Shown here: positions 6,680 to 27,073 of the stretch, piece after piece
Layout of the letters: each line of letters opens with the position of its first letter
How positions within the stretch are numbered: the stretch's first letter is position 1
NCBI GenBank assembly: GCA_900553205.1
Contig: USCK01000001.1
Span: forward strand, 1-36,676
Origin: an uncultured bacterium
GTDB lineage: Bacteria > Cyanobacteriota > Vampirovibrionia > Gastranaerophilales > Gastranaerophilaceae
Direction of reading: 5' to 3'
Length of the DNA stretch: 36,676 nucleotides
Position numbers and translations under genes: made by a program
Notes under the pieces: model-generated
Database searches by the model: none
The model's input: the letters and a program-made list of their open reading frames with translations, nothing else
What the model was told of the DNA's origin: nothing

Positions 6680-8770
6680 TTATTCTCCAATTCCTTCGGT
6701 ATTTTCAGGTTCAGGCTCTTTCAAAATGTTTTCCCAATGTTTCATGCTTTGGATAATAGGTTCAGCTTCTGCATACGCTTTTTCAGGGCTCTTTAGTTTC
6801 TTTGCAGAAATCATGCCTGCCTTAGCTTTAACAGCTAATCCCACAAGTTCAGGCATGTTCATAACAGGTGCATCTTCTTTTATCAAATGGTTATGATATC
6901 TGTCGTTATAATTCTCACTAAGTCGAGGTTTCCAAGTATCAGAGCTGTTATCTCTAGGGTTGTAGTTTTTATCAATACCAAACATATCAGGGAAATGTAC
7001 CTGTATGTTTTGGGTTCCACGCATCAGCTCTGCATATTTAGCCTTCAATCTCATTTGTGGATTTCTACGGATATTATCGGTCAAGCGCTCACGTTCATTC
7101 TCTCTGTCAGGATCAGGACAAAGATAGCCCCCCAGATATTCCGGCAACCAAGCATTGCTCCCATTATTATTTGGGTCATTAATCCAGCTTTGTGTTAAAT
7201 ATTCAGCCGTTGGCATGTTATCATGCGACCCTATCAAGCTCCAATCAGGTTTGGGTGCAGTCGGCTCCCAAATTTCCTGACCTTTATCATCTTTTCGTAT
7301 CTCACCGTCCTCATCTCTCACAGGTGCCCAGTCAAAACAAGTGTTTTGTGTTCTACTGCCTGTTGTTGTTATAATTCCGGGGAGTTTTTCTTCGTTTTCA
7401 AATACTTGTTTGAAAACCCAAGACTGTTCGCCTAAGTTTTCCCATACTGCTTGTTTTGGATTAACTCCGTTATCTTCCATAGCCGGTAAAATAATATTAT
7501 GCAAAACTTTGCGATAGTTGCCTTTTGGGTCAACCTCGTTTATATTAGACAAGTTGCCGCCCCATAATTGACTTCTGTCTGCGATATTATAGGTTCTGCC
7601 ACCATCTGCACTGACAACCATGTGAACAGTGTCTGCGTTATATACATAAGGATCAACAAGTCCCATAACATTATCTACACGAACATTTTCAACATTTTCG
7701 GTTGCTTTTTTAACTTTGTTATAAAGCAGTTTCCCTGATTCACCCAATGTTCCGTCCTCATTAAACAGTTTGTTAGGGTCAGGTAGAGGGTTGTTCCAAA
7801 TTTGTGGTGAGTTACAAGGTCCACCGTATTCGGCGCCGATTTTCCAACCTGATTTAAACGCATCTTCATGAGCCCATTCGTCAGCATAAGAGAAGCCTAC
7901 AAGCAAATCTCCGATATATTTAATACCGTCTTTTTGCCGTTCTGCTTTGTCATCTTTTTCTTGTTTATCTACCAAGAACTGCGTAAACATATACTGATTG
8001 ATATCATCTTTTGACCGTTCTCTCAATGTTTTATATCTTTCTGTCGCTTTGGAATCATCTGTTTTCTTTAAAGAAATTAAGTGTCTGTCAGTCGGATTAT
8101 CCCATTTGTGAAAATCATCTGTACCGTGGATATCAGAAAGTACATGGAAAATAGCATAAGATTCAAGCCATTCCTTGTTTTCTTGTTTGAAATCGTTAAA
8201 CTCCTTGTTTAATTTTTCAGCTTTCGGATTGCCGTCTGCAAGTTTGGTTTTAAAATTCCTATAGGCTTTTTTAGTCAATAATCTTGAAACTTCTTTTGCC
8301 TCGTCAAAGTCTGACATTTCATAATCTTTGCCACTTGGTTGAGGAATGGAATTTACTTTATCAATATCATGTTTTGAAAGAATATTTGCATAACCATCCT
8401 CGGTCATTTTGCCAAAGTTTAGGAACAAAGGATTTTTTGCATAAATCGAAGCTCTGTATGGTGAGTTATCACCTTTGCAAAGTTCACCGTTTGGGCCAAG
8501 TTGAATACAGTTAAAACCGTTGGTTTTAGCAAGTTGGTTCATCTCTTTTGCAAAATACGGAGTTCCGATATAATGGTTTTTTCTCGCACCTTTTACATCA
8601 GGATAGCAAGAGCCATGCATAATAAGAGCTCTGTTTTGAATATCTAAATACTTGAAAGCCTTGTTCATATCAGCTTCCATGTGGGTTTTTTCTTCCTCTC
8701 TCAATTTGCGTTTAAAATTGAGAGGAGTAGTATTTTTGTGATTCTGATATTTGCTAATCCCTAATTCCAT
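6680..8770 (-). CDS. GH77-like 4-alpha-glucanotransferase (divergent amylomaltase)
   Basis: 696 aa with GH77-like blocks: 'IQLGPNGE..GDNSPYRASIYAKNPLFLNF' (cf. QxLPL..SPY..S.FAGNPLLI), 'IGDLLVGFS', 'VRVDNVMGLVDPY', 'WENLGEQ' and 'GSHDNMPT' (cf. THDNDT). It is divergent, so the exact activity is uncertain. Confidence 0.6.
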   Translation of the reverse strand: MELGISKYQNHKNTTPLNFKRKLREEEKTHMEADMNKAFKYLDIQNRALIMHGSCYPDVKGARKNHYIGTPYFAKEMNQLAKTNGFNCIQLGPNGELCKGDNSPYRASIYAKNPLFLNFGKMTEDGYANILSKHDIDKVNSIPQPSGKDYEMSDFDEAKEVSRLLTKKAYRNFKTKLADGNPKAEKLNKEFNDFKQENKEWLESYAIFHVLSDIHGTDDFHKWDNPTDRHLISLKKTDDSKATERYKTLRERSKDDINQYMFTQFLVDKQEKDDKAERQKDGIKYIGDLLVGFSYADEWAHEDAFKSGWKIGAEYGGPCNSPQIWNNPLPDPNKLFNEDGTLGESGKLLYNKVKKATENVENVRVDNVMGLVDPYVYNADTVHMVVSADGGRTYNIADRSQLWGGNLSNINEVDPKGNYRKVLHNIILPAMEDNGVNPKQAVWENLGEQSWVFKQVFENEEKLPGIITTTGSRTQNTCFDWAPVRDEDGEIRKDDKGQEIWEPTAPKPDWSLIGSHDNMPTAEYLTQSWINDPNNNGSNAWLPEYLGGYLCPDPDRENERERLTDNIRRNPQMRLKAKYAELMRGTQNIQVHFPDMFGIDKNYNPRDNSSDTWKPRLSENYNDRYHNHLIKEDAPVMNMPELVGLAVKAKAGMISAKKLKSPEKAYAEAEPIIQSMKHWENILKEPEPENTEGIGE

Positions 8771-9832: not shown

Positions 9833-10894
9833 ATGACAGCAACATTAGAAAAGTCTATGGACGAATTTGAAACATTGCTAGAAGAATCTTTTTCTAAATC
9901 TTATGCAGTAGCTGATATCGTAGAAGGTACTGTTATGAAAAAAGAATCTGATGGCTATTTAGTAAGCGTGAAAGGTGCTAAAATGGAAGCTTTCTTATCA
10001 AACAAAGAATTGTCTTCTGATGAACCTGAACTAGAAATCGGAGATGTAAAAGAATTTTACGTTCTTAAAGAAGAAAACGATGAAGATTCAATGTTATTAT
10101 CATTGAAAAGAATCGCATTTGCTCAAGCTTGGGCTCAACTTAACGATGCAAAAATTCAAGGTGATACAATCCTTGCAAAAGTTGTTTCTACAGTTAAGGG
10201 TGGTGTTCTTGTTGATGTTGCAGATTTGAAAGGCTTTATCCCTTCATCTCAATTAAGAACCGGTACTCCATTTGAAGGTTTAATCGACCAAAAAATCGAA
10301 GTTAAAGTTCTTGAAGCAGATCCTAAGAAAAACAAACTTATTCTTTCTCAACGTCAAGCAGTTGCAGAACAAAGAGATCAAGTTGTTGATAATGTATTAG
10401 CTTCTTTAGAAGAAGATTCAGTAGTTAAAGGTACTGTTGTAAGAATTACAGACTTTGGTGCTTTCGTTGATATCAACGGTATTGATGGTTTGTTACCAAT
10501 TTCTGAAATTTCTTGGCAAAGAATTAAACACCCTTCAGATGTTATCACTTTAGGTGACGAAATCGAAGTTAAAATTATCAAAATTGATACAGAATTAAAG
10601 AGAATTTCTTTAAGCTTAAAGAGAATGGGCGAAAATCCTTGGCAACAAATTGAAGGTCAATTTGAAGAAGGTCAAGTTGTTAAAGGTACTGTAAATAAAA
10701 TCACTACTTTCGGTGCTTTCATCAACATCTTCCCAGGAGTTGAAGCTTTATTACCAGTTTCTGAAATGAGCAATGAAAATGTTAATCCATTCAACATGTT
10801 CAAAGTAGGTGATGAAATCGAAGTTCTTATTAAGAGATTCACTCCAAAAGAACACAGAATCGCTTTGAGCGTAAAAGATATTCCTAACGCATAG
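9833..10894 (+). CDS. rpsA: 30S ribosomal protein S1 (four S1 domains)
   Basis: Four repeats of the S1 fold signature (e.g. 'VKGTVVRITDFGAFVDI', 'VKGTVNKITTFGAFINI'). A GGAGG lies 7 nt upstream. It sits directly after ispH, a common pairing. Confidence 0.9.
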   Translation: MTATLEKSMDEFETLLEESFSKSYAVADIVEGTVMKKESDGYLVSVKGAKMEAFLSNKELSSDEPELEIGDVKEFYVLKEENDEDSMLLSLKRIAFAQAWAQLNDAKIQGDTILAKVVSTVKGGVLVDVADLKGFIPSSQLRTGTPFEGLIDQKIEVKVLEADPKKNKLILSQRQAVAEQRDQVVDNVLASLEEDSVVKGTVVRITDFGAFVDINGIDGLLPISEISWQRIKHPSDVITLGDEIEVKIIKIDTELKRISLSLKRMGENPWQQIEGQFEEGQVVKGTVNKITTFGAFINIFPGVEALLPVSEMSNENVNPFNMFKVGDEIEVLIKRFTPKEHRIALSVKDIPNA

Positions 10895-10917
10895 TCAATA
10901 AGGAATTTTCAATAATT

Positions 10918-10953
10918 AAAGAGGGATTTTTGATTTTCAAAAATCCCTCTTTT
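10918..10953 (+). terminator. Intrinsic terminator after rpsA
   Basis: aaagagggattttt-gattttc-aaaaatccctcttt followed by T residues. Confidence 0.7.
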
Positions 10954-11024
10954 ACATTTATTCTATTTTGATGTAGTATAAGGTTAAGTTAACGGGAAGT
11001 AAATTATTAAGGAGAGATTTGAAT

Positions 11025-20206: not shown

Positions 20207-20416
20207 ATGCAAATAGATAATATCGAAGAATTAGGTAATTATATAAAGCAAACAAGAAAATCTCAAGGTCTAACACAGGCAGAGTTAGCAATGACAGCAA
20301 ATGTCGGTGTCAGATTTTTGGTTGATTTAGAGAATGGCAAAGAAACTGCACAAGTCGGGAAAGTTTTGAAAATTTGTCAAATGTTGGGATTAAAATTAGA
20401 TTTGCAAGCAAAATAG
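20207..20416 (+). CDS. hipB: HipB-like Xre-family antitoxin
   Basis: 69 aa with HTH 'GLTQAELAMTANVGVRFLVDLENGK'. It lies 9 nt upstream of hipA. Confidence 0.8.
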   Translation: MQIDNIEELGNYIKQTRKSQGLTQAELAMTANVGVRFLVDLENGKETAQVGKVLKICQMLGLKLDLQAK

Positions 20417-20425
20417 GAAATATAA

Positions 20426-21646
20426 ATGCAAGATTTATTAAATGTTTACTTGAATAATGATTTGATTGGTTATTTAAACAAAGATGATAATGGTGGCTTT
20501 TCTTTTCAATACGATAAAGATGCAGAACAACCGTTATCAATTAGTTTGCCTTTAAGAGAAGATTCGTTTACCAATAAAGAATGCAGAGGGTTTTTTAACG
20601 GTTTATTGCCTGAAAGTGAACAAGTTAGAGTTAATATCGGAAAAAGATACGGTATTAACCCAAAAAATGATTTTTCGATACTTAATGCAATAGGTTATGA
20701 CTGTGCAGGGGCAGTGTCATTTTTTAAAGATATGCCGAAAAATTTAAAAGAATTTTATAAACTTGAAGGGCAAATATTAACAGATGATGAACTTGAAAAG
20801 TATATCAAGGAATTGCCAAGAAAGCCTTTAGCTTTAGGTTCTGACAAAAGATTATCTCTCGCAGGTGCACAGGATAAAACAGCAGTTATTTTAATTGATA
20901 ATAAAATTGCATTACCTGATAGTAATGTTCCTTCAACTCATATATTAAAACCTGCTATAGACGGTTTTTTAGAATCAATCGAAAATGAATACATTTGTAT
21001 GAAGGTTGCAGAAAAACTTGGTATTCAAGTTCCTGTCGTGCATATTGATAGTGTAAATGATACAAAATACTTTTTGATAGAAAGATATGATAGAGTAATT
21101 GCAGATGAAACAGTAAAAAGAGTTCATCAAGAAGACTTCTGCCAAGCCTCAAATATCCCGAGTGCTTATAAGTATCAAGCAGAAGGTGGAGTTGATTATA
21201 AGATGTGTATTGATATCCTCAAAAAGACTACAACTCCTGCAAGTGCAATTAAACGATTTATTGATTTGATGATATTTAATTATCTTATTGGTAATAATGA
21301 CGCACATGGCAAAAACTTTTCGTTATTGCATTATGCTAACGATAATATTGTTTTTGCACCTGCTTATGATATTTTATGCACCAGTGTATATCCTGAATTG
21401 TCAAACAAAATGGCAATGAAAATCGGTGGATATTATGAAGCCTCAAAGATTTATCCAAGACATTTTGAAAGAATGTCAAAAGAATTGGAAATAAGTAATA
21501 CACAAATTAAAAAAGTACTCAAAAAACAATGTGAAATTTTACCGGATATTGTAAAAGAAGTTTCAAATAGTTTTGATAATAATATAGAAATTTTAAAAGT
21601 TGTAACACAAAATTGTCAAAGAAATAAGAAAAATTTTGAGTTTTAA
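20426..21646 (+). CDS. hipA: HipA-family serine/threonine kinase toxin
   Basis: N-terminal coupling domain 'LNVYLNNDLIGYL...FSFQYD', P-loop-like 'LSLAGAQDKTAV' and catalytic 'GNNDAHGKNFSLL'. Confidence 0.9.
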   Translation: MQDLLNVYLNNDLIGYLNKDDNGGFSFQYDKDAEQPLSISLPLREDSFTNKECRGFFNGLLPESEQVRVNIGKRYGINPKNDFSILNAIGYDCAGAVSFFKDMPKNLKEFYKLEGQILTDDELEKYIKELPRKPLALGSDKRLSLAGAQDKTAVILIDNKIALPDSNVPSTHILKPAIDGFLESIENEYICMKVAEKLGIQVPVVHIDSVNDTKYFLIERYDRVIADETVKRVHQEDFCQASNIPSAYKYQAEGGVDYKMCIDILKKTTTPASAIKRFIDLMIFNYLIGNNDAHGKNFSLLHYANDNIVFAPAYDILCTSVYPELSNKMAMKIGGYYEASKIYPRHFERMSKELEISNTQIKKVLKKQCEILPDIVKEVSNSFDNNIEILKVVTQNCQRNKKNFEF

Positions 21647-21711: not shown

Positions 21712-23799
21712 TTATGCTTTAGCAGCTCCTGATTTTTCGATAATTTCTTTTTCGATGTTAGCAGGAACTTGTTCGTAGCATTGGAATTCCATAGAGAATG
21801 TACCACGACCTTGAGTTTTTGAACGGATATCAGTTGCATAACCGAACATTTCAGCCAATGGAACAAGAGCTCTGATTTTTTGAATTCCGGTACCTTCGAT
21901 GATTTCCATACCTTCAACACGTCCACGACGAGAAGAAATATCACCGATAATATCACCTGTATTTTCTTCAGGAACTTCGATTTCAACTTTCATCATAGGT
22001 TCAAGAATACAAGGTTTAGCTTTTCTAGTACCTTCTTTGATAGCCATAGAACCGGCAATTTTGAATGCCATTTCAGAAGAGTCAACTTCGTGGTATGAAC
22101 CATCGTATAATGTTACCTTAACATCAATCATTGGGAATCCTGCTAAGATACCACCTTCAAGAGCTTCTTCCATACCTTTTCTTGCAGGTTCGATGTATTC
22201 TTTAGGAATAGCACCACCAACGATTTTGTTTTCAAATACGAATCCTGCATTTTCTTCTGCCGGTTCGATTTGAATTTTAACATGACCATATTGACCTTTA
22301 CCACCTGATTGTCTGATGAATTTAGAATCTTGGTCTGCGTTGCCTCTGATTGTTTCACGATAAGCAACTTGTGGTTTACCAACATTAGCATCTACTTTGA
22401 ATTCTCTTAATAGACGGTCAACGATGATATCAAGGTGAAGTTCACCCATACCGGAAATAATTGTTTGACCTGTTTCTGTATCAGATTTAACTCTGAATGA
22501 TGGATCTTCTTCAGCAAGTTTTTGAAGAGCGATACCCATTTTATCTTGGTCAGCTTTTGTTTTTGGTTCAATAGCAACAGAGATAACCGGTTCAGGGAAA
22601 GTCATTCTTTCTAAGATGATAGGTGCTTTTTCGTCGCATAATGTATCACCTGTAGTAGTGTCTTTCAAACCAACTGCTGCGCAAATATCACCTGCATAAA
22701 CTTCTTCTTCTTCGATTCTTTGGTCTGCGTACATTTGTACTAGACGAGAGATACGTTCTTTTTTACCGTTAGTAGCGTTAAGAACATAAGAACCTGATGT
22801 AAGTTTACCAGAGTATATTCTCATAAATGTTAAACGACCAACATAAGGGTCAGTCATAACTTTGAATGCTAAAGCTGCGAATGGTTCTTCGTCAGAAGAA
22901 TGTCTTTCAACTTTTGTACCGTCTTCAAGTTCACCTTCGATAGCTTTTACATCAACTGGAGATGGCATTAATTCAACAATAGAGTCAAGAAGTAATTGAA
23001 CACCTTTGTTTTTGAATGCTGTACCACAAGTTACAGGAACGATTTTGTTATCGCAAACTGCTTTTCTTAAACCAGCTTTTAATTCATCAATAGAAAGTTC
23101 TTCACCTTCTAAATATTTCATCATTAAATCGTCATCTGTTTCAGCGATAGCTTCAACTAATGCATCTCTGTATTTTTGAGCTTCTTCTAACATATCAGCA
23201 GGAATATCTTCTTCCTTGATATCTGTACCTAAGTCATTAGTGTAAATTTCAGCTTTCATAGTGAATAAGTCGATAAGCCCTTTGAATTGGTCTTCAGCAC
23301 CGATTGGTAATCTGATAGGGTGAGCATTAGCACCTAATCTGTTTTTGATTTGGTCAACTACACGATAGAAGTTAGCACCTGTTCTATCCATTTTGTTAAC
23401 GAATACCATACGAGGAACTTCATATCTGTTAGCTTGTCTCCAAACTGTTTCTGATTGAGATTGAACACCACCAACTGCGCAGAATACAGCAACAACGCCG
23501 TCTAATACACGCAATGAACGTTCAACTTCGATTGTAAAGTCAACGTGGCCCGGTGTGTCAATGATGTTGATTTGGTGACCTTTCCAAGTAGATGTTACTG
23601 CTGCTGATTGGATTGTGATACCACGTTCACGTTCTTGATCCATAAAGTCAGTTACAGCAGCACCATCGTGTACTTCACCAATTTTGTGAGTTTTACCTGT
23701 GTAGAACAGGATACGCTCTGTAGTAGTGGTTTTGCCGGCATCAATGTGAGCAGCAATACCAATGTTTCTAATTTTTTCCAATGGTGTCTTTCTTGCCAT
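21712..23799 (-). CDS. fusA: Elongation factor G
   Basis: 'AHIDAGKTT', 'DTPGHVDF' and 'NKMD' in a full-length 695-aa EF-G. It is not flanked by rpsG or tuf here. Confidence 0.97.
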
Positions 23800-23952
23800 A
23801 GTTGTTTTTCCTTTTTATATTTACTAATTACGTATAACTATATACTAGTTCTTATTATAAAGTTTCGCACAAACATGTTTCTTATACAAGGAATATTAAG
23901 AATTTATGAATTTGGGGTTAGTGGTGATGAAAAATGTGTAAGTTTATGTTGA

Positions 23953-23980
23953 TTGTGTAAACTTGCAAAATGTAAAAAAT
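23953..23980 (+). promoter_or_regulatory. Sigma-70-type promoter for a candidate small RNA
   Basis: TTGCAA (23953-23958), a 16-nt spacer and TATAAT (23975-23980), in a region with no protein-coding ORF downstream on this strand. Confidence 0.45.
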
Positions 23981-23987
23981 GTTTTAT

Positions 23988-24080
23988 AATAAAAACATAG
24001 GGTGGTAGTTGTCCAAGCTACCAAATGACTCTAAGAAAAGCTAAATGGTTCTTATCTGTTTGGGTAAGAGCCATTTTTTG
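23988..24080 (+). ncRNA. Candidate antisense small RNA (putative type I antitoxin)
   Basis: It starts about 7 nt after the TATAAT. A 5' hairpin tggtag-ttgtccaag-ctacca is present. The RNA ends in a 13-bp stem (24044-24056 / 24063-24075) plus a T-run (24076-24079). The last ~29 nt are antisense to the 3' end of the small ORF at 24052-24132. Confidence 0.35.
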
Positions 24081-24132
24081 TTATGTAAAGAATTAAAAAT
24101 ACCATTATTAAAGTAAGATTTATATTTTCCAT
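24052..24132 (-). CDS. 26-aa hydrophobic peptide (putative type I toxin)
   Basis: Below the ORF-track length cutoff. The minus strand reads AGGAGG-ctgtt-ATG and encodes MENINLTLIMVFLILYITKNGSYPNR, a single TM-like core with a polar/basic tail. Confidence 0.35.
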   Translation of the reverse strand: MENINLTLIMVFLILYITKNGSYPNR

Positions 24133-24308
24133 AACAGCCTCCTTTCATAGAAATGAACAACCGAAAAGCTATATAAATTGTGTCGTCATTCTTCTGAAAA
24201 GAGTCATTTTTACCCTATGTTGCACTGTCAAGGTGCTTTATAAATATAGCATAGTTAGTATTAAATGCGAATATATTTAAATATATTTAACAATTTGTGA
24301 ATATTTTT

Positions 24309-24350
24309 TATTAAGTTACTAAGAATTAAGTGATTAAGTTATTAAGATAT
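24309..24350. repeat. 8-nt-periodic array (inverted partner of 24506-24557)
   Basis: ttattaag ttactaag aattaagt gattaagt tattaaga. It is the reverse complement of the CTTAATCA/CTTAGTAA-type units. Confidence 0.55.
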
Positions 24351-24419
24351 CAAACTGATAGATTCTGAATAACTTGAAAATTATATATTCACTAGTGTTC
24401 ATATAAATTTTTTAAGTTT

Positions 24420-24478
24420 TCAGAATGACGAGTAAATTTACACACAAAAATTATTCGGGACAGTAGTGAAGGCGCAGT
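24420..24478. repeat. Core fragment of the dispersed element
   Basis: It contains tcagaatgac (24420-24429) and aggcgcagt (24470-24478). Both are also present in the copy at 6030-6200. Confidence 0.5.
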
Positions 24479-24505
24479 TGATAAATCTCTTACGATAGTT
24501 ACTTT

Positions 24506-24557
24506 CTTATTAACCTATTAACTTAGTAACTTAATCACTTAGTCACATATTCACTTC
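24506..24557. repeat. 8-nt-periodic array
   Basis: cttattaa cctattaa cttagtaa cttaatca cttagtca catattca cttc. Confidence 0.6.
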
Positions 24558-24784
24558 TATATATAAAATTCTTTCTCATCTATTTAGATGAGATTTTTCG
24601 ATGTTTGCTATTGTTTTTGAAATTCTTGCCGTATGACGACATGAGAAGTCATGTAAATATTGACTTTCGGATAGTTGACTTTTTTGAAAACAACATTAAA
24701 GACAACATGTAACGAAAAGAATATGAGGTAATATGACAAAAAATCAGTACATACAACAGAACAACCAAATAGGAGGGCATGCTT

Positions 24785-27073
24785 ATGGGTATGGCAGCAT
24801 CACAGGCTAGGTATCTAGCACTGACCGCTCGTAAAAGTAATGTTGAGTACGAAGGCCAACAAATTAACCAATCCAGAACGGCATTGGCAAACCAGACGGC
24901 TAACCTATTCAACCAAATGATGGGAATGAGCGTCCCAACACCGCCTTCTGTTGCAGATTACACCACTGTACAATATTCATTCAGTGATGGTTCTAACACA
25001 GAAGCAATTTCAAACTACTATCAATTGGGTAATTCAGACTCTGATTACAACTATGTTGTAACAACTTACCACAACGAAAAAGTTTATCAGGGTTCTCGTA
25101 AGAAAATGAACGACCCACAGGTTCAAGCGACCTACACAAATCGCTACACTTACAATCCGTCTGATGCAGATAACAATATCAGTCGTACTGTAACAAAAGC
25201 TGAACTTAATGCTGATGGTTCTTACTTTATTCAAGAAACTAACGGTACAACTAAAACTTACCGTCCGGTTACTGAAAAAGAAGAAGATCAAGTAAAAGCT
25301 ATTAACCACGGTTTGGGTCAAAACGAAAAGAATCCTACTGTAAATCTTGCTAGTGATGATTTACGTAAGAACTTTAACATCGTTACAAACCCTACATCTG
25401 ATCAGTTGAAAGAATTAGGTGAGCTATTTGGTTATAGATCATCTAACTTCAACAAATCTACTGCAACTCAAAATGTTACTAATGCTAATATTGGTACTTA
25501 TACAGCTTGTACAGAGGCAGATGCAGACCAAATCAGAACAATTTTTGGTTCTGATGCAACACCTACATCAGTAAAAAGTGAGACAAAAAATTGGAATAAA
25601 ACTGATGCAACTGGTTATAACGCTTGTACAGATACAGATCTTGCAGCTATTCAACAGTTATACGGTGCAGATGTTACTGATGCTACAGCTTATATGAAAA
25701 AAGCTGATGGCACATATATGACAAAAGAAGCGTATGATGGTTTAGATACAACAACTAAGTCTGATGTCGAAGTAAGATCTCTTGTTCAAAATTACTACAA
25801 GAGCGGTGATTACTACATTTCAGCAGCTGATAAAGCTACTGTTGAAGGTGGTGGTACTGCTACTGCACAAACAGTAACTCGCAAAACAATGGACATTGAT
25901 GCAGGTAACCAAAGTTCATTTATTGACATTGATACAAACGATGCTGATATGGTTGCAAGAGCAATGGCAGCAATCGGTTGTACTCAAGAAGAACTTGGCA
26001 ACTATATGTTGTTCAACACAACAGACGTAAACTTCCAAGGTTTTGTAAAACGAGAAGATGTTGAAAACATGAACAAGGATAGTCAATTCTATACAGTTGA
26101 CAACTTCTCTAATCAATACTATTGGAATGGTACAGGTTATGTAACAGCTTCTGACATGGATAACAAAGTTGAAGGTGCGACATTATATGTTCCTGAAAAC
26201 AAGAAAACAGGTATTGGTATTGTTCAAGGCGGCGACCAAACTTTCTACACAGATGGTAATTCATTTGTTACAAAAGCTGATTTAGACGCTGCGTTAGCTT
26301 CTTACAATCGTTACTTAGCAACAGGTAAAAAAGAAGCTAATACAATTAATGAGATACTTGTATCTAATGATCCTGCGTTCTCTAACTATACTCAGGTTGG
26401 TAACTGCCAATTGTCAGAAATATTTGCAGCTGATTTAGAACGTGATGAAGCAATGAATACCGAAATCATGCAGATTATCAAGGATATGAAGGGTGAAAAC
26501 GGTGATAAAGTTGCAGCAGAAAACTTAGAAGCTTGTTTTGATGTTGATGCAAACGGTGACTATGTATATAAAGGTGGTATCTACAAGTTCCAAATGGGTG
26601 GTACAACATACTACACTACTAAAAAAGACTTGGATACTTCATTAGGTACATCAATCGTTGATAACAACATCGATGTTCAACAAGAAAAACTTAGATACTA
26701 CAACGGTGTATATGTAGATACAAAAGTTGAAGATACTAAGAAAGCATTGTTGGAAACAGATGGCAACGGTAGATTCAAATCTATCAAGTTGGAAGATGAT
26801 AATGTTCAATACACATTGAATGTTGAGTCAAAAACCGACGAAGATGCATACAATGATGCAATGAACAGATACTACTATGAAAAAGAAGTATATGAAAAGA
26901 ATGTATCTGATATCAATGCAAAAACTGAAATTATTCAGGCACAAGACAGAACCCTTGAACTGCGTTTGGAACAGTTGAATACCGAACAATCTGCTCTACA
27001 AAACGAAATGGAAGCAGTTAAGAAGGTAGTTGACAAACACGTAGAACTTGGATTCAAGACATTCGGTGGCTAA
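24785..27073 (+). CDS. Large hypothetical protein with conserved helical termini and a repeat-rich T/N/D/Y-rich central domain
   Basis: AGGAGG (24771-24776) lies 8 nt before the ATG at 24785; the tracked ATG at 24779 is too close. The N-terminus is 'MGMAASQARYLALTARKSNVEYEGQQINQ' and the C-terminal coiled coil ends 'VELGFKTFGG'. No signal peptide and no flagellin motifs are present. Confidence 0.85.
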   Translation: MGMAASQARYLALTARKSNVEYEGQQINQSRTALANQTANLFNQMMGMSVPTPPSVADYTTVQYSFSDGSNTEAISNYYQLGNSDSDYNYVVTTYHNEKVYQGSRKKMNDPQVQATYTNRYTYNPSDADNNISRTVTKAELNADGSYFIQETNGTTKTYRPVTEKEEDQVKAINHGLGQNEKNPTVNLASDDLRKNFNIVTNPTSDQLKELGELFGYRSSNFNKSTATQNVTNANIGTYTACTEADADQIRTIFGSDATPTSVKSETKNWNKTDATGYNACTDTDLAAIQQLYGADVTDATAYMKKADGTYMTKEAYDGLDTTTKSDVEVRSLVQNYYKSGDYYISAADKATVEGGGTATAQTVTRKTMDIDAGNQSSFIDIDTNDADMVARAMAAIGCTQEELGNYMLFNTTDVNFQGFVKREDVENMNKDSQFYTVDNFSNQYYWNGTGYVTASDMDNKVEGATLYVPENKKTGIGIVQGGDQTFYTDGNSFVTKADLDAALASYNRYLATGKKEANTINEILVSNDPAFSNYTQVGNCQLSEIFAADLERDEAMNTEIMQIIKDMKGENGDKVAAENLEACFDVDANGDYVYKGGIYKFQMGGTTYYTTKKDLDTSLGTSIVDNNIDVQQEKLRYYNGVYVDTKVEDTKKALLETDGNGRFKSIKLEDDNVQYTLNVESKTDEDAYNDAMNRYYYEKEVYEKNVSDINAKTEIIQAQDRTLELRLEQLNTEQSALQNEMEAVKKVVDKHVELGFKTFGG

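Follow-up and report, generated by a model that had tools for sequence, protein, structure and literature searches.

The DNA examined here is a 36,676-nucleotide (nt) stretch (hereafter, the window) from a human-gut member of Candidatus Gastranaerophilales, to which exact-protein look-ups and a genome scan assign it. In a 979-nt gap between two diverging genes, one for EF-G and one for a protein of 764 amino acids (aa), lies a small cassette in which a minus-strand gene for a short hydrophobic peptide converges on a plus-strand unit predicted to produce a small RNA (sRNA). A first-pass annotation of the sequence had proposed a candidate type I toxin-antitoxin locus at this site. The elements on which that proposal was built are all present, with an error in the coordinates of the plus-strand promoter. 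In the list that follows, H1 and H2 are the two helices predicted between the 5' and 3' arms of the toxin messenger RNA (mRNA), P2 is the 5' hairpin of the sRNA, SD is the Shine-Dalgarno sequence and ORF an open reading frame; L-numbers in the text are labels of comparison contigs and loci.

21712..23799, minus strand: EF-G gene (fusA-like)
23963..23990, plus strand: sRNA promoter, with -35 box TTGCAA (23963-23968), a 16-nt spacer and -10 box TATAAT (23985-23990), conserved in position
23982..23993, minus strand: U-rich tract UUUAUUAUAAAA, directly after H1-3', the complement of the sRNA -10 region
23984..24236, minus strand: predicted full-length toxin mRNA, ~250 nt, both ends predicted
23994..24032, minus strand: 3' arm, pairing with the 5' arm: H2-3' AGAGUCAUUU (24032-24023), the complement of P2, and H1-3' ACCCUAUGUU (24003-23994)
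23996..24081, plus strand: predicted antisense sRNA (candidate antitoxin), ~86 nt, its start placed from the -10 box and its end from the terminator
24004..24022, plus strand: P2 of the sRNA (GGUAGUU...AGCUACC), 100% paired in 15 sequences
24033..24042, minus strand: candidate 3' anti-SD AGCUUUUCUU, between the hairpin and H2-3', from structure prediction
24043..24079, plus strand: intrinsic terminator of the sRNA, with hairpin 24043-24076 and T-run 24074-24079, identified by covariation and strand energies
24052..24132, minus strand: candidate toxin ORF, 26 aa, MENINLTLIMVFLILYITKNGSYPNR
24138..24143, minus strand: SD sequence AGGAGG, 5 nt before the ATG, kept in the family
24196..24221, minus strand: 5' arm, with H1-5' AACAUAGGGU (24221-24212) and H2-5' AAAUGACUCU (24209-24200)
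24196..24203, minus strand: candidate anti-SD CUCUUUUC, overlapping H2-5'
24243..24271, minus strand: best toxin promoter candidate, TTCGCA (24271-24266), 17 nt, TATATT (24248-24243), with TG preceding the -10 box and an implied start at ~24236
24779..27073, plus strand: 764-aa ORF, no Pfam match

Most of what had been read from the sequence was found where it was said to be: AGGAGG (24143-24138) followed after 5 nt by the ATG at 24132, the 26-codon ORF whose stop ends at 24052, and the plus-strand hairpin running into TTTTTT, in which our scanner counts 15 pairs including G-T pairs. The overlap of hairpin and T-run with the stop codon and ~8–9 codons of the peptide gene was likewise borne out. 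The TTGCAA-16-TATAAT promoter, given as 23953-23980, exists and lies 10 nt further to the right. A TTGACA at 24231-24226, mentioned as a possible toxin promoter element, is present and is not conserved as such, belonging instead to a 5' hairpin unique to this cassette type. The 8 promoter-like sites found within the window compare with 6.9 expected, so that a promoter match alone is uninformative; terminator-like sites are mildly unusual (2 found vs 0.3 expected), and the 95 nt of the plus strand at 23991-24085 fold better than shuffled sequences (z = -4.8). The features nonetheless exceed chance, because the same ORF, promoter positions and hairpins recur in ~25 cassettes with different flanks. 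Rfam gave no match at gathering score in the window, a permissive Rfam search of 23780-24800 returned three chance-level matches only, far below gathering scores, and a tRNA scan found none.

The ~25 related cassettes come from gut metagenomes and from contigs of phages. Scanning with the peptide and with two DNA patterns identified relatives in 13 of 15 metagenome matches and in the IMG/VR phage contigs L025/L027, L026, L043 and L044, while the sRNA covariance model located second copies in phage contigs L035 and L037 (one locus) and in chromosomal contig L033. A BLAST search with the cassette found no match among GenBank phages or PLSDB plasmids, and an inverted-repeat pattern search on viral contigs returned nothing. 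Contigs with identical flanking proteins fell into four groups: A-type contigs, which carry the cassette of the window; B-type contigs, with flanks ~100% identical and a central ~210 nt only ~55% identical; a tandem arrangement (L018) of two units 372 nt apart, each with its plus-strand promoter; and four empty contigs (L020-L023) that encode an identical EF-G protein and have no cassette. The orthologous position in ten other Gastranaerophilales genomes also lacks the cassette, so that synteny by itself offered nothing to compare. These empty, tandem and variable states mark the cassette as an accessory unit that can be duplicated and that plays no part in EF-G regulation. Other chromosomal copies occupy gaps adjoining dnaJ, a response regulator gene and dapB/asd, and at least five phage contigs have a cassette, in every case between tail-fibre/tail-assembly genes and the endolysin gene. 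Comparison across these contigs shows the cassette to be accessory, multi-copy and often phage-borne.

The same comparison bears on a different reading of the locus. On the minus strand the small ORF is followed by the hairpin and then, 244 nt on, by the EF-G gene, an order that would suit a leader-peptide transcription attenuator for this co-oriented gene (23799..21712), like the leaders found before ribosomal-protection/resistance genes. We rejected this reading as barely credible, since it is contradicted by the comparative data: the empty contigs have no cassette before their identical EF-G gene product, one strain has two cassettes in tandem, and other family members have no co-oriented downstream gene or reside in phages. 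The hairpin is, moreover, weak on the minus strand and lacks a U-run there.

At the end of one phage contig (L025:1290-1340, the same contig as L027), the cassette has beside it a sequence similar to a tRNA 3' end (…GGTCAGAAGTTCGAGTCTTCTAACGCCCACCA). ARAGORN called no tRNA in this interval, and the sequence may be a remnant of an attachment site, which would make this the end of a prophage.

Across 21 aligned units, 18 unique ORF sequences encode 14 peptides and the ORF is intact in 20; copies recovered later contributed four extra peptide variants. All family peptides are 24–26 aa long, with the consensus MDxFNLTLFLIFLILYxLKNGS... and the pattern M-x-x-[IFL]-N-[LI]-x-L-[hydrophobic x9]-x-K-N-[GS]-S, and the SD position is occupied by GGAGG, GGUGG, GGGGG or GAGG throughout the family. 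The coding signature was examined in codons 2–17, which lie outside the sRNA overlap. Variable sites there numbered 14, 3 and 13 of 16 at codon positions 1, 2 and 3, and the pooled proportions of synonymous (pS) and nonsynonymous (pN) differences were 0.54 and 0.19, compared with 0.08 and 0.31 in a shifted frame. Comparison of the units thus shows a peptide under purifying selection that evolves like a coding sequence. Among divergent cassettes it is the small ORF with its coding signature, and not the hairpin alone, that is conserved, a distinction on which the first-pass annotation had staked its proposal. Residues 6–18 are hydrophobic (mean hydropathy 2.7–3.5), and the product is predicted to be a single-helix membrane peptide of 26 aa, our candidate toxin; a hydrophobic peptide of less than 60 aa whose ORF has a ribosome-binding site is what the type I class would call for. 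One B-type copy (L004:241-475), in which ATA replaces the ATG start and the H2-5' arm has a C-to-A change, looks like an inactivated cassette.

The sRNA unit is defined by a promoter at a fixed distance and by two structured elements. In 20 of 20 tabulated units a TTGACA, TTGAAA, TTGAAT or TTGCAA box is followed, after a spacer of 16–17 nt, by TATAAT or AATAAT ending exactly 9 nt before GGGTGG, and the spacers and upstream DNA are unrelated among these units. The consensus structure of the sRNA has 95.5% of cells paired, with UA/CG exchanges, a level reached by none of 500 shuffles; the terminator covaries (UA:8/CG:5), and extra copies contain compensatory variants of P2 (GGCAGU/ACUGCC and GGCGGU/ACC(A)GCC). 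Many pairs in this structure are U.G on the plus strand, where the minus strand would have A.C instead, and both hairpins are therefore more stable on the plus strand, at -18.8 vs -8.9 kcal/mol for the terminator hairpin and -6.5 vs -3.3 kcal/mol for P2, with the plus strand favored in 15 of 15 units in each case. Downstream of the hairpin the plus strand has its TTTTTT run, and on the minus strand 2.3 of 8 nt are U. Plus-strand stability together with the T-run therefore identifies the hairpin as the sRNA's own, one-way terminator, replacing the shared bidirectional terminator that had been suggested at first. Comparison among units shows that the promoter, 5' hairpin and terminator of the sRNA are conserved and selected on the plus strand. 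In silico, then, an antisense RNA gene is predicted that has a promoter and a terminator of its own, and whose product is complementary to the toxin mRNA because the two overlap. The covariance model of the sRNA (R1) scored the window copy at 98 bits and found further copies; its weak matches at window 10871-10955, in L013 and at L033:10507 are ordinary terminators and were discarded as family members.

An inverted repeat flanks the cassette. Its left arm, on the plus strand at 23994-24032, consists of AACATAGGGT, the P2 hairpin and AAATGACTCT, and its right arm (24200-24221) is the reverse complement of both of these sequence blocks. Because the repeat is inverted in the DNA, both RNAs carry the same two blocks in the same sense, and the complement of the blocks is found only where a minus-strand transcript continues past the hairpin. 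H1 was found by RNAalifold unaided, with 94.7% of cells paired, exchanges of CG:12/UA:9 at one pair and AU:15/GU:6 at another, and no equal among 500 shuffles; its predicted pairing probability averages 0.95, and it is compensated (AGAGU/ACUCU) in a copy recovered later. H2 is out of register between cassette types in the MAFFT alignment, and column-based pair counting was replaced by an alignment-free test of cognate against non-cognate duplexes. Its 17 sequence variants contain compensating changes, as in AAAUGACUCU/AGAGUCAUUU, GAUAGCUCU/AGGGCUAUC, GAAAGCCUU/AAGGCUUUC and AGAUACCUUU/AAAGGUAUCU, and cognate arms average -10.6 kcal/mol compared with -6.4 ± 0.6 kcal/mol for permuted arms, with 0 of 50,000 permutations reaching the observed value. 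In 10 of the 17 variants, the differences between arms are transitions and produce G.U pairs on the mRNA strand. Unit 1 of L018 has B-type arms around an A-type peptide, and the arms therefore appear to travel together. This covariation argues for pairing between the two ends of the toxin mRNA, 5' with 3', and hence for an mRNA that overlaps the whole sRNA.

A 10 + 10-nt inverted repeat (23994-24032, 24200-24221) around a cassette that is present or absent between strains, and that occurs in many contexts, could also mark a miniature mobile element or a recombinase/invertase site, with the small ORF incidental to it. We regard this as highly improbable and set it aside on the comparative evidence, as transitions giving G.U in the mRNA indicate selection at the RNA level rather than the DNA level, the conserved unit reaches beyond the repeats to include both promoters, the ORF is under purifying selection, and none of the recovered cassettes is in inverted orientation.

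On the mRNA strand no U-run follows the hairpin; one follows H1-3' in all 21 units (6.7 of 10 nt are U), making the tract at 23982..23993 the likely 3' end region of the toxin mRNA. At the other end, the best promoter candidate is conserved only within the A and B cassette types, and phage copies have in its place a TATAAT-like box 6–9 nt before AGGGU. Most likely, the toxin mRNA is a self-closing molecule of ~250 nt, from ~24236 to ~23984, that overlaps the whole sRNA. The 3' overlap of the two RNAs in the first-pass annotation is thereby retained, and its confinement to the terminator is not. Modelled from 24237 to 23984, the full-length mRNA of the window folds at -61.5 kcal/mol (z = -4.1), with the 5'–3' helix in both the minimum-energy and the centroid structure. 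An extra helix in the 5' untranslated region (AACUAACC/GGUUAGUU) has modest support, with double changes at three pairs and 23–32 of 500 shuffles reaching it.

The 5' arm may also act on the SD sequence, as CUCUUUUC (24203-24196) is complementary to GAAAGGAG at the SD site. In predicted ensembles the SD is ~19–20% unpaired, whether the mRNA is free or has its sRNA-target region masked, and what changes between the two is its partner. In the free mRNA it is predicted to pair mainly with the 3' sRNA-target region (mean 0.46 over 16 representatives, 0.60 in the window), and when that region is masked it is predicted to pair mainly with the 5' arm (mean 0.56).

We propose that the cassette would work as follows. 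Minus-strand transcription would give the ~250-nt mRNA for the 26-aa peptide, and plus-strand transcription from the near-consensus promoter would give the ~86-nt sRNA, which would stop within the last part of the peptide ORF, at a one-way terminator of its own. The 5'–3' helix would keep the mRNA compact, stable and poorly translated, with its SD base-paired. Perfect complementarity to the sRNA would extend over the final ~86 nt of the mRNA, the 3' strand of the helix among them, and the sRNA has the same sequence as the mRNA 5' arm; being complementary to that 3' strand, it would displace the 5' arm upon binding. The freed CUCUUUUC could then pair with the SD sequence, and RNase III would cut the long sRNA-mRNA duplex, a two-fold action like that demonstrated for SR4 on bsrG mRNA (PMC3834814). 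Were the sRNA lost or outpaced, the peptide would be made and the membrane damaged, an outcome that would favor retention of the cassette or prophage, or that could operate during phage infection.

One phage (L035:4427-5392, equivalent to L037:624-1589) carries two divergent cassettes ~870 nt apart that flank a gene for a 183-aa protein. Their peptides are MDKFNLTLIIIFLILCVLKNGSHLNR and MSNINLTLFLIFLILFVLKNGSHHKK, and the two cassettes also have different H2 and P2 sequences, which would be expected of sRNAs that are each specific for their own mRNA.

The comparative data thus support the core of the first-pass annotation, a candidate type I toxin-antitoxin locus in which a hydrophobic peptide gene converges on an antisense RNA with its own promoter and terminator. 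In our view the cassette probably belongs to a hitherto undescribed family of type I toxin-antitoxin-like modules, members of which occur in gut Gastranaerophilales and in their phages. Several observations weigh against this interpretation. The hydrophobic stretch of the peptide is short (~13–15 residues), and none of the 15 peptides searched matched a Pfam or NCBIfam family. Candidate toxin promoters vary in position by cassette type, and the mRNA 3' end is placed only from covariation and U content. The SD is mostly paired in full-length, 3'-truncated and sRNA-masked mRNAs alike, leaving no clearly translatable form in the predictions. The strand bias of the H2 wobbles has exceptions, as L042 and L025 favor the other strand, and the cassettes share descent, so that shuffle controls overstate significance. 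Finally, the phage-borne peptide gene is always co-oriented with the late genes by the lysis module, which a lysis-related role would fit equally well.

This last point leads to a serious alternative, though in our view an unlikely one, in which the cassette encodes a real small membrane protein under cis-antisense control that is not a toxin-antitoxin system, with the chromosomal copies as remnants. The protein might be the product of a phage moron gene acting in lysis timing, as a holin/antiholin-like helper, or in superinfection exclusion, with antisense silencing in lysogens. The position of the cassette in every phage contig, co-oriented and between tail-fibre/tail-assembly genes and endolysin/holin-like genes, favors such a role, as does a weak, non-significant match to the BhlA holin family (E = 0.086). 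However, many copies are chromosomal and intergenic without nearby phage genes (beside fusA, dnaJ, a response regulator gene and dapB), and the tandem duplication, presence/absence polymorphism and inactivated L004 copy are typical of selfish toxin-antitoxin loci. A heavily locked mRNA, with a 5'–3' helix and a paired SD, is a hallmark of genes with harmful products (PMC6733600), and holin-like and type I toxin activities are in any case compatible with each other. As a tentative extension of the toxin-antitoxin interpretation, and a less probable one than that interpretation itself, the sRNA would mimic the mRNA 5' end and compete for the same 3' partner, so that control would be a strand displacement between two locked shapes and not simple masking; placed in a phage late operon, the module would supply an RNA-gated membrane-damaging peptide that the phage would itself use for lysis help or host shut-off, beyond addiction.

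Among described systems, the closest architecture to that of the cassette is bsrG/SR4 of the Bacillus prophage SPbeta. In bsrG mRNA of Bacillus subtilis, nt 1–35 pair with nt 232–262; SR4, which is complementary to the mRNA's 3' part, leaves nt 1–33 single-stranded on binding and lengthens the SD helix from 4 to 8 bp (PMC3834814). SR4 also promotes RNase III-dependent decay, giving it a dual mode of action on bsrG mRNA (PMC3834814, PMC6562991). The cassette resembles bsrG/SR4, and with it bsrE/SR5, txpA/RatA and yonT/SR6, in its convergent toxin mRNA and antisense RNA overlapping at their 3' ends, its small hydrophobic peptide and its prophage or phage location. It also shares with bsrG/SR4 a 5'–3' helix and an antitoxin complementary to the 3' strand of that helix, an arrangement supported here by covariation, and its sRNA (23996-24081, plus strand) falls wholly within the 3' part of the predicted mRNA, covering the stop codon and 8–9 codons. 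The differences from this group are several: the peptide has 24–26 aa vs 38–59 aa, the sRNA ~86 nt vs 163–222 nt, the sRNA terminator lies inside the ORF end, the mRNA has a U-rich tract only and no separate terminator hairpin after the 5'–3' helix, and the host belongs to Gastranaerophilales (Cyanobacteriota in the broad sense) and not to Firmicutes. Homology to BsrG or TxpA was not found, as judged from the absence of Pfam/NCBIfam matches rather than from direct alignment with BsrG.

A long-distance lock is also known from hok/Sok of the enterobacterial plasmid R1 and aapA/IsoA of Helicobacter pylori, in which the full-length toxin mRNA is closed by a 5'–3' interaction with coupled covariations, with CU-rich anti-SD elements and several copies per genome (PMC6733600). 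The cassette shares the covariation-supported lock and the multiple copies, and has candidate CU-rich anti-SD elements. In those systems, however, the antisense RNA targets the 5' region (for hok, via the mok leader) and activation needs 3' trimming, whereas here the antisense RNA covers the 3' end, where the only conserved antisense promoter/terminator unit of the cassette lies, and no leader ORF is evident. In par (Fst/RNAII, Enterococcus plasmid pAD1), one of the layouts cited in the first-pass annotation, the terminator is bidirectional and the RNAs pair via direct repeats at their 5' ends. The cassette shares with par convergent transcription, a toxin of about the ~30 aa of Fst and a terminator stem-loop in the overlap, and differs in that its hairpin is stable on one strand only and that its 5' repeats are inverted in the DNA, so that both RNAs carry AACAUAGGGU...AAAUGACUCU in the same sense and are not complementary in them.

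Candidate type I systems in the cyanobacterial phylum have been described in Microcystis aeruginosa (msoT1/msoA1 and others), and several of their antisense RNAs likewise overlap the coding sequence and 3' untranslated region (PMC12390103). Those toxins are 39–81 aa long and come from promoter/terminator prediction in one genome, while members of the present family occur in Gastranaerophilales, which are non-photosynthetic, and in their phages, and the evidence for the family is covariation, not expression assays. Beyond these 2025 candidates, Proteobacteria, Firmicutes and Tenericutes are the only groups with known type I systems (PMC12390103), which upholds the first-pass annotation's view that none had been described in this lineage. 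Our literature search found no paper linking type I systems with Melainabacteria and none describing one in Gastranaerophilales.

The surroundings of the cassette contain several further features. Just beyond the EF-G gene, at window 20207-21646 (plus strand), is a hipBA-like type II toxin-antitoxin pair, made up of a 69-aa helix-turn-helix protein (20207..20416) and one of 406 aa that has both the N- and the C-terminal HipA domain (20426..21646). Cassette-bearing contigs L015-L019 and L024 contain this pair, and a DUF2130 gene takes its place in the cassette-less L020-L023. There are two full-length EF-G-like ORFs within 15 kb (6680-8770 and 21712-23799, both minus strand; 696 and 695 aa), neither in a classical str operon context; the Pfam check covered the second only. 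At the position of the 764-aa ORF, cassette-less strains encode a protein of 2,929–3,234 aa with FliD_N and FliD_C domains; the 764-aa protein itself has a copy at 96% identity in HGM07924, the nearest genome. Upstream of its gene, ~205 nt (24574-24778) that begin with a terminator-like hairpin (24574-24593) are 74–94% identical in ten Gastranaerophilales loci and may be a conserved regulatory leader. Between this stretch and the cassette, a ~215-nt segment at 24327-24541 has at its two ends inverted repeats of 23 nt with 91% complementarity (24327-24349, 24519-24541); present in the window, L016 and L018, and with an unrelated ~80 nt in place of window 24327-24570 in L001, L003, L004, L015 and L017, it may be a miniature mobile element. 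Farther away, the minus strand at 30560-32860 encodes a 766-aa DEAD-box helicase with a C-terminal DSHCT (Ski2/Mtr4-type) domain.

With no match to a known toxin or RNA family, an architecture like that of bsrG/SR4 and good comparative support, the cassettes appear to represent a new family of a known kind. The narrow known range of type I systems probably reflects searches by similarity to known loci (PMC12390103), and a family in uncultured gut Gastranaerophilales and their phages, defined by comparative evidence, would widen that range. The occurrence here of a bsrG/SR4-style design, with a 3'-overlapping antisense RNA, a 5'–3' closing helix and a paired SD, would mean that this design has arisen or spread far outside Bacillus. 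The ~17 natural variants of the closing helix, with their compensatory changes, could serve as material for testing RNA locks and the specificity of cognate pairs, and the covariance model and DNA patterns could be used to find these unannotated genes in metagenomes. If our interpretation is true, this would be the first covariation-backed type I family in the cyanobacterial phylum and its phages.

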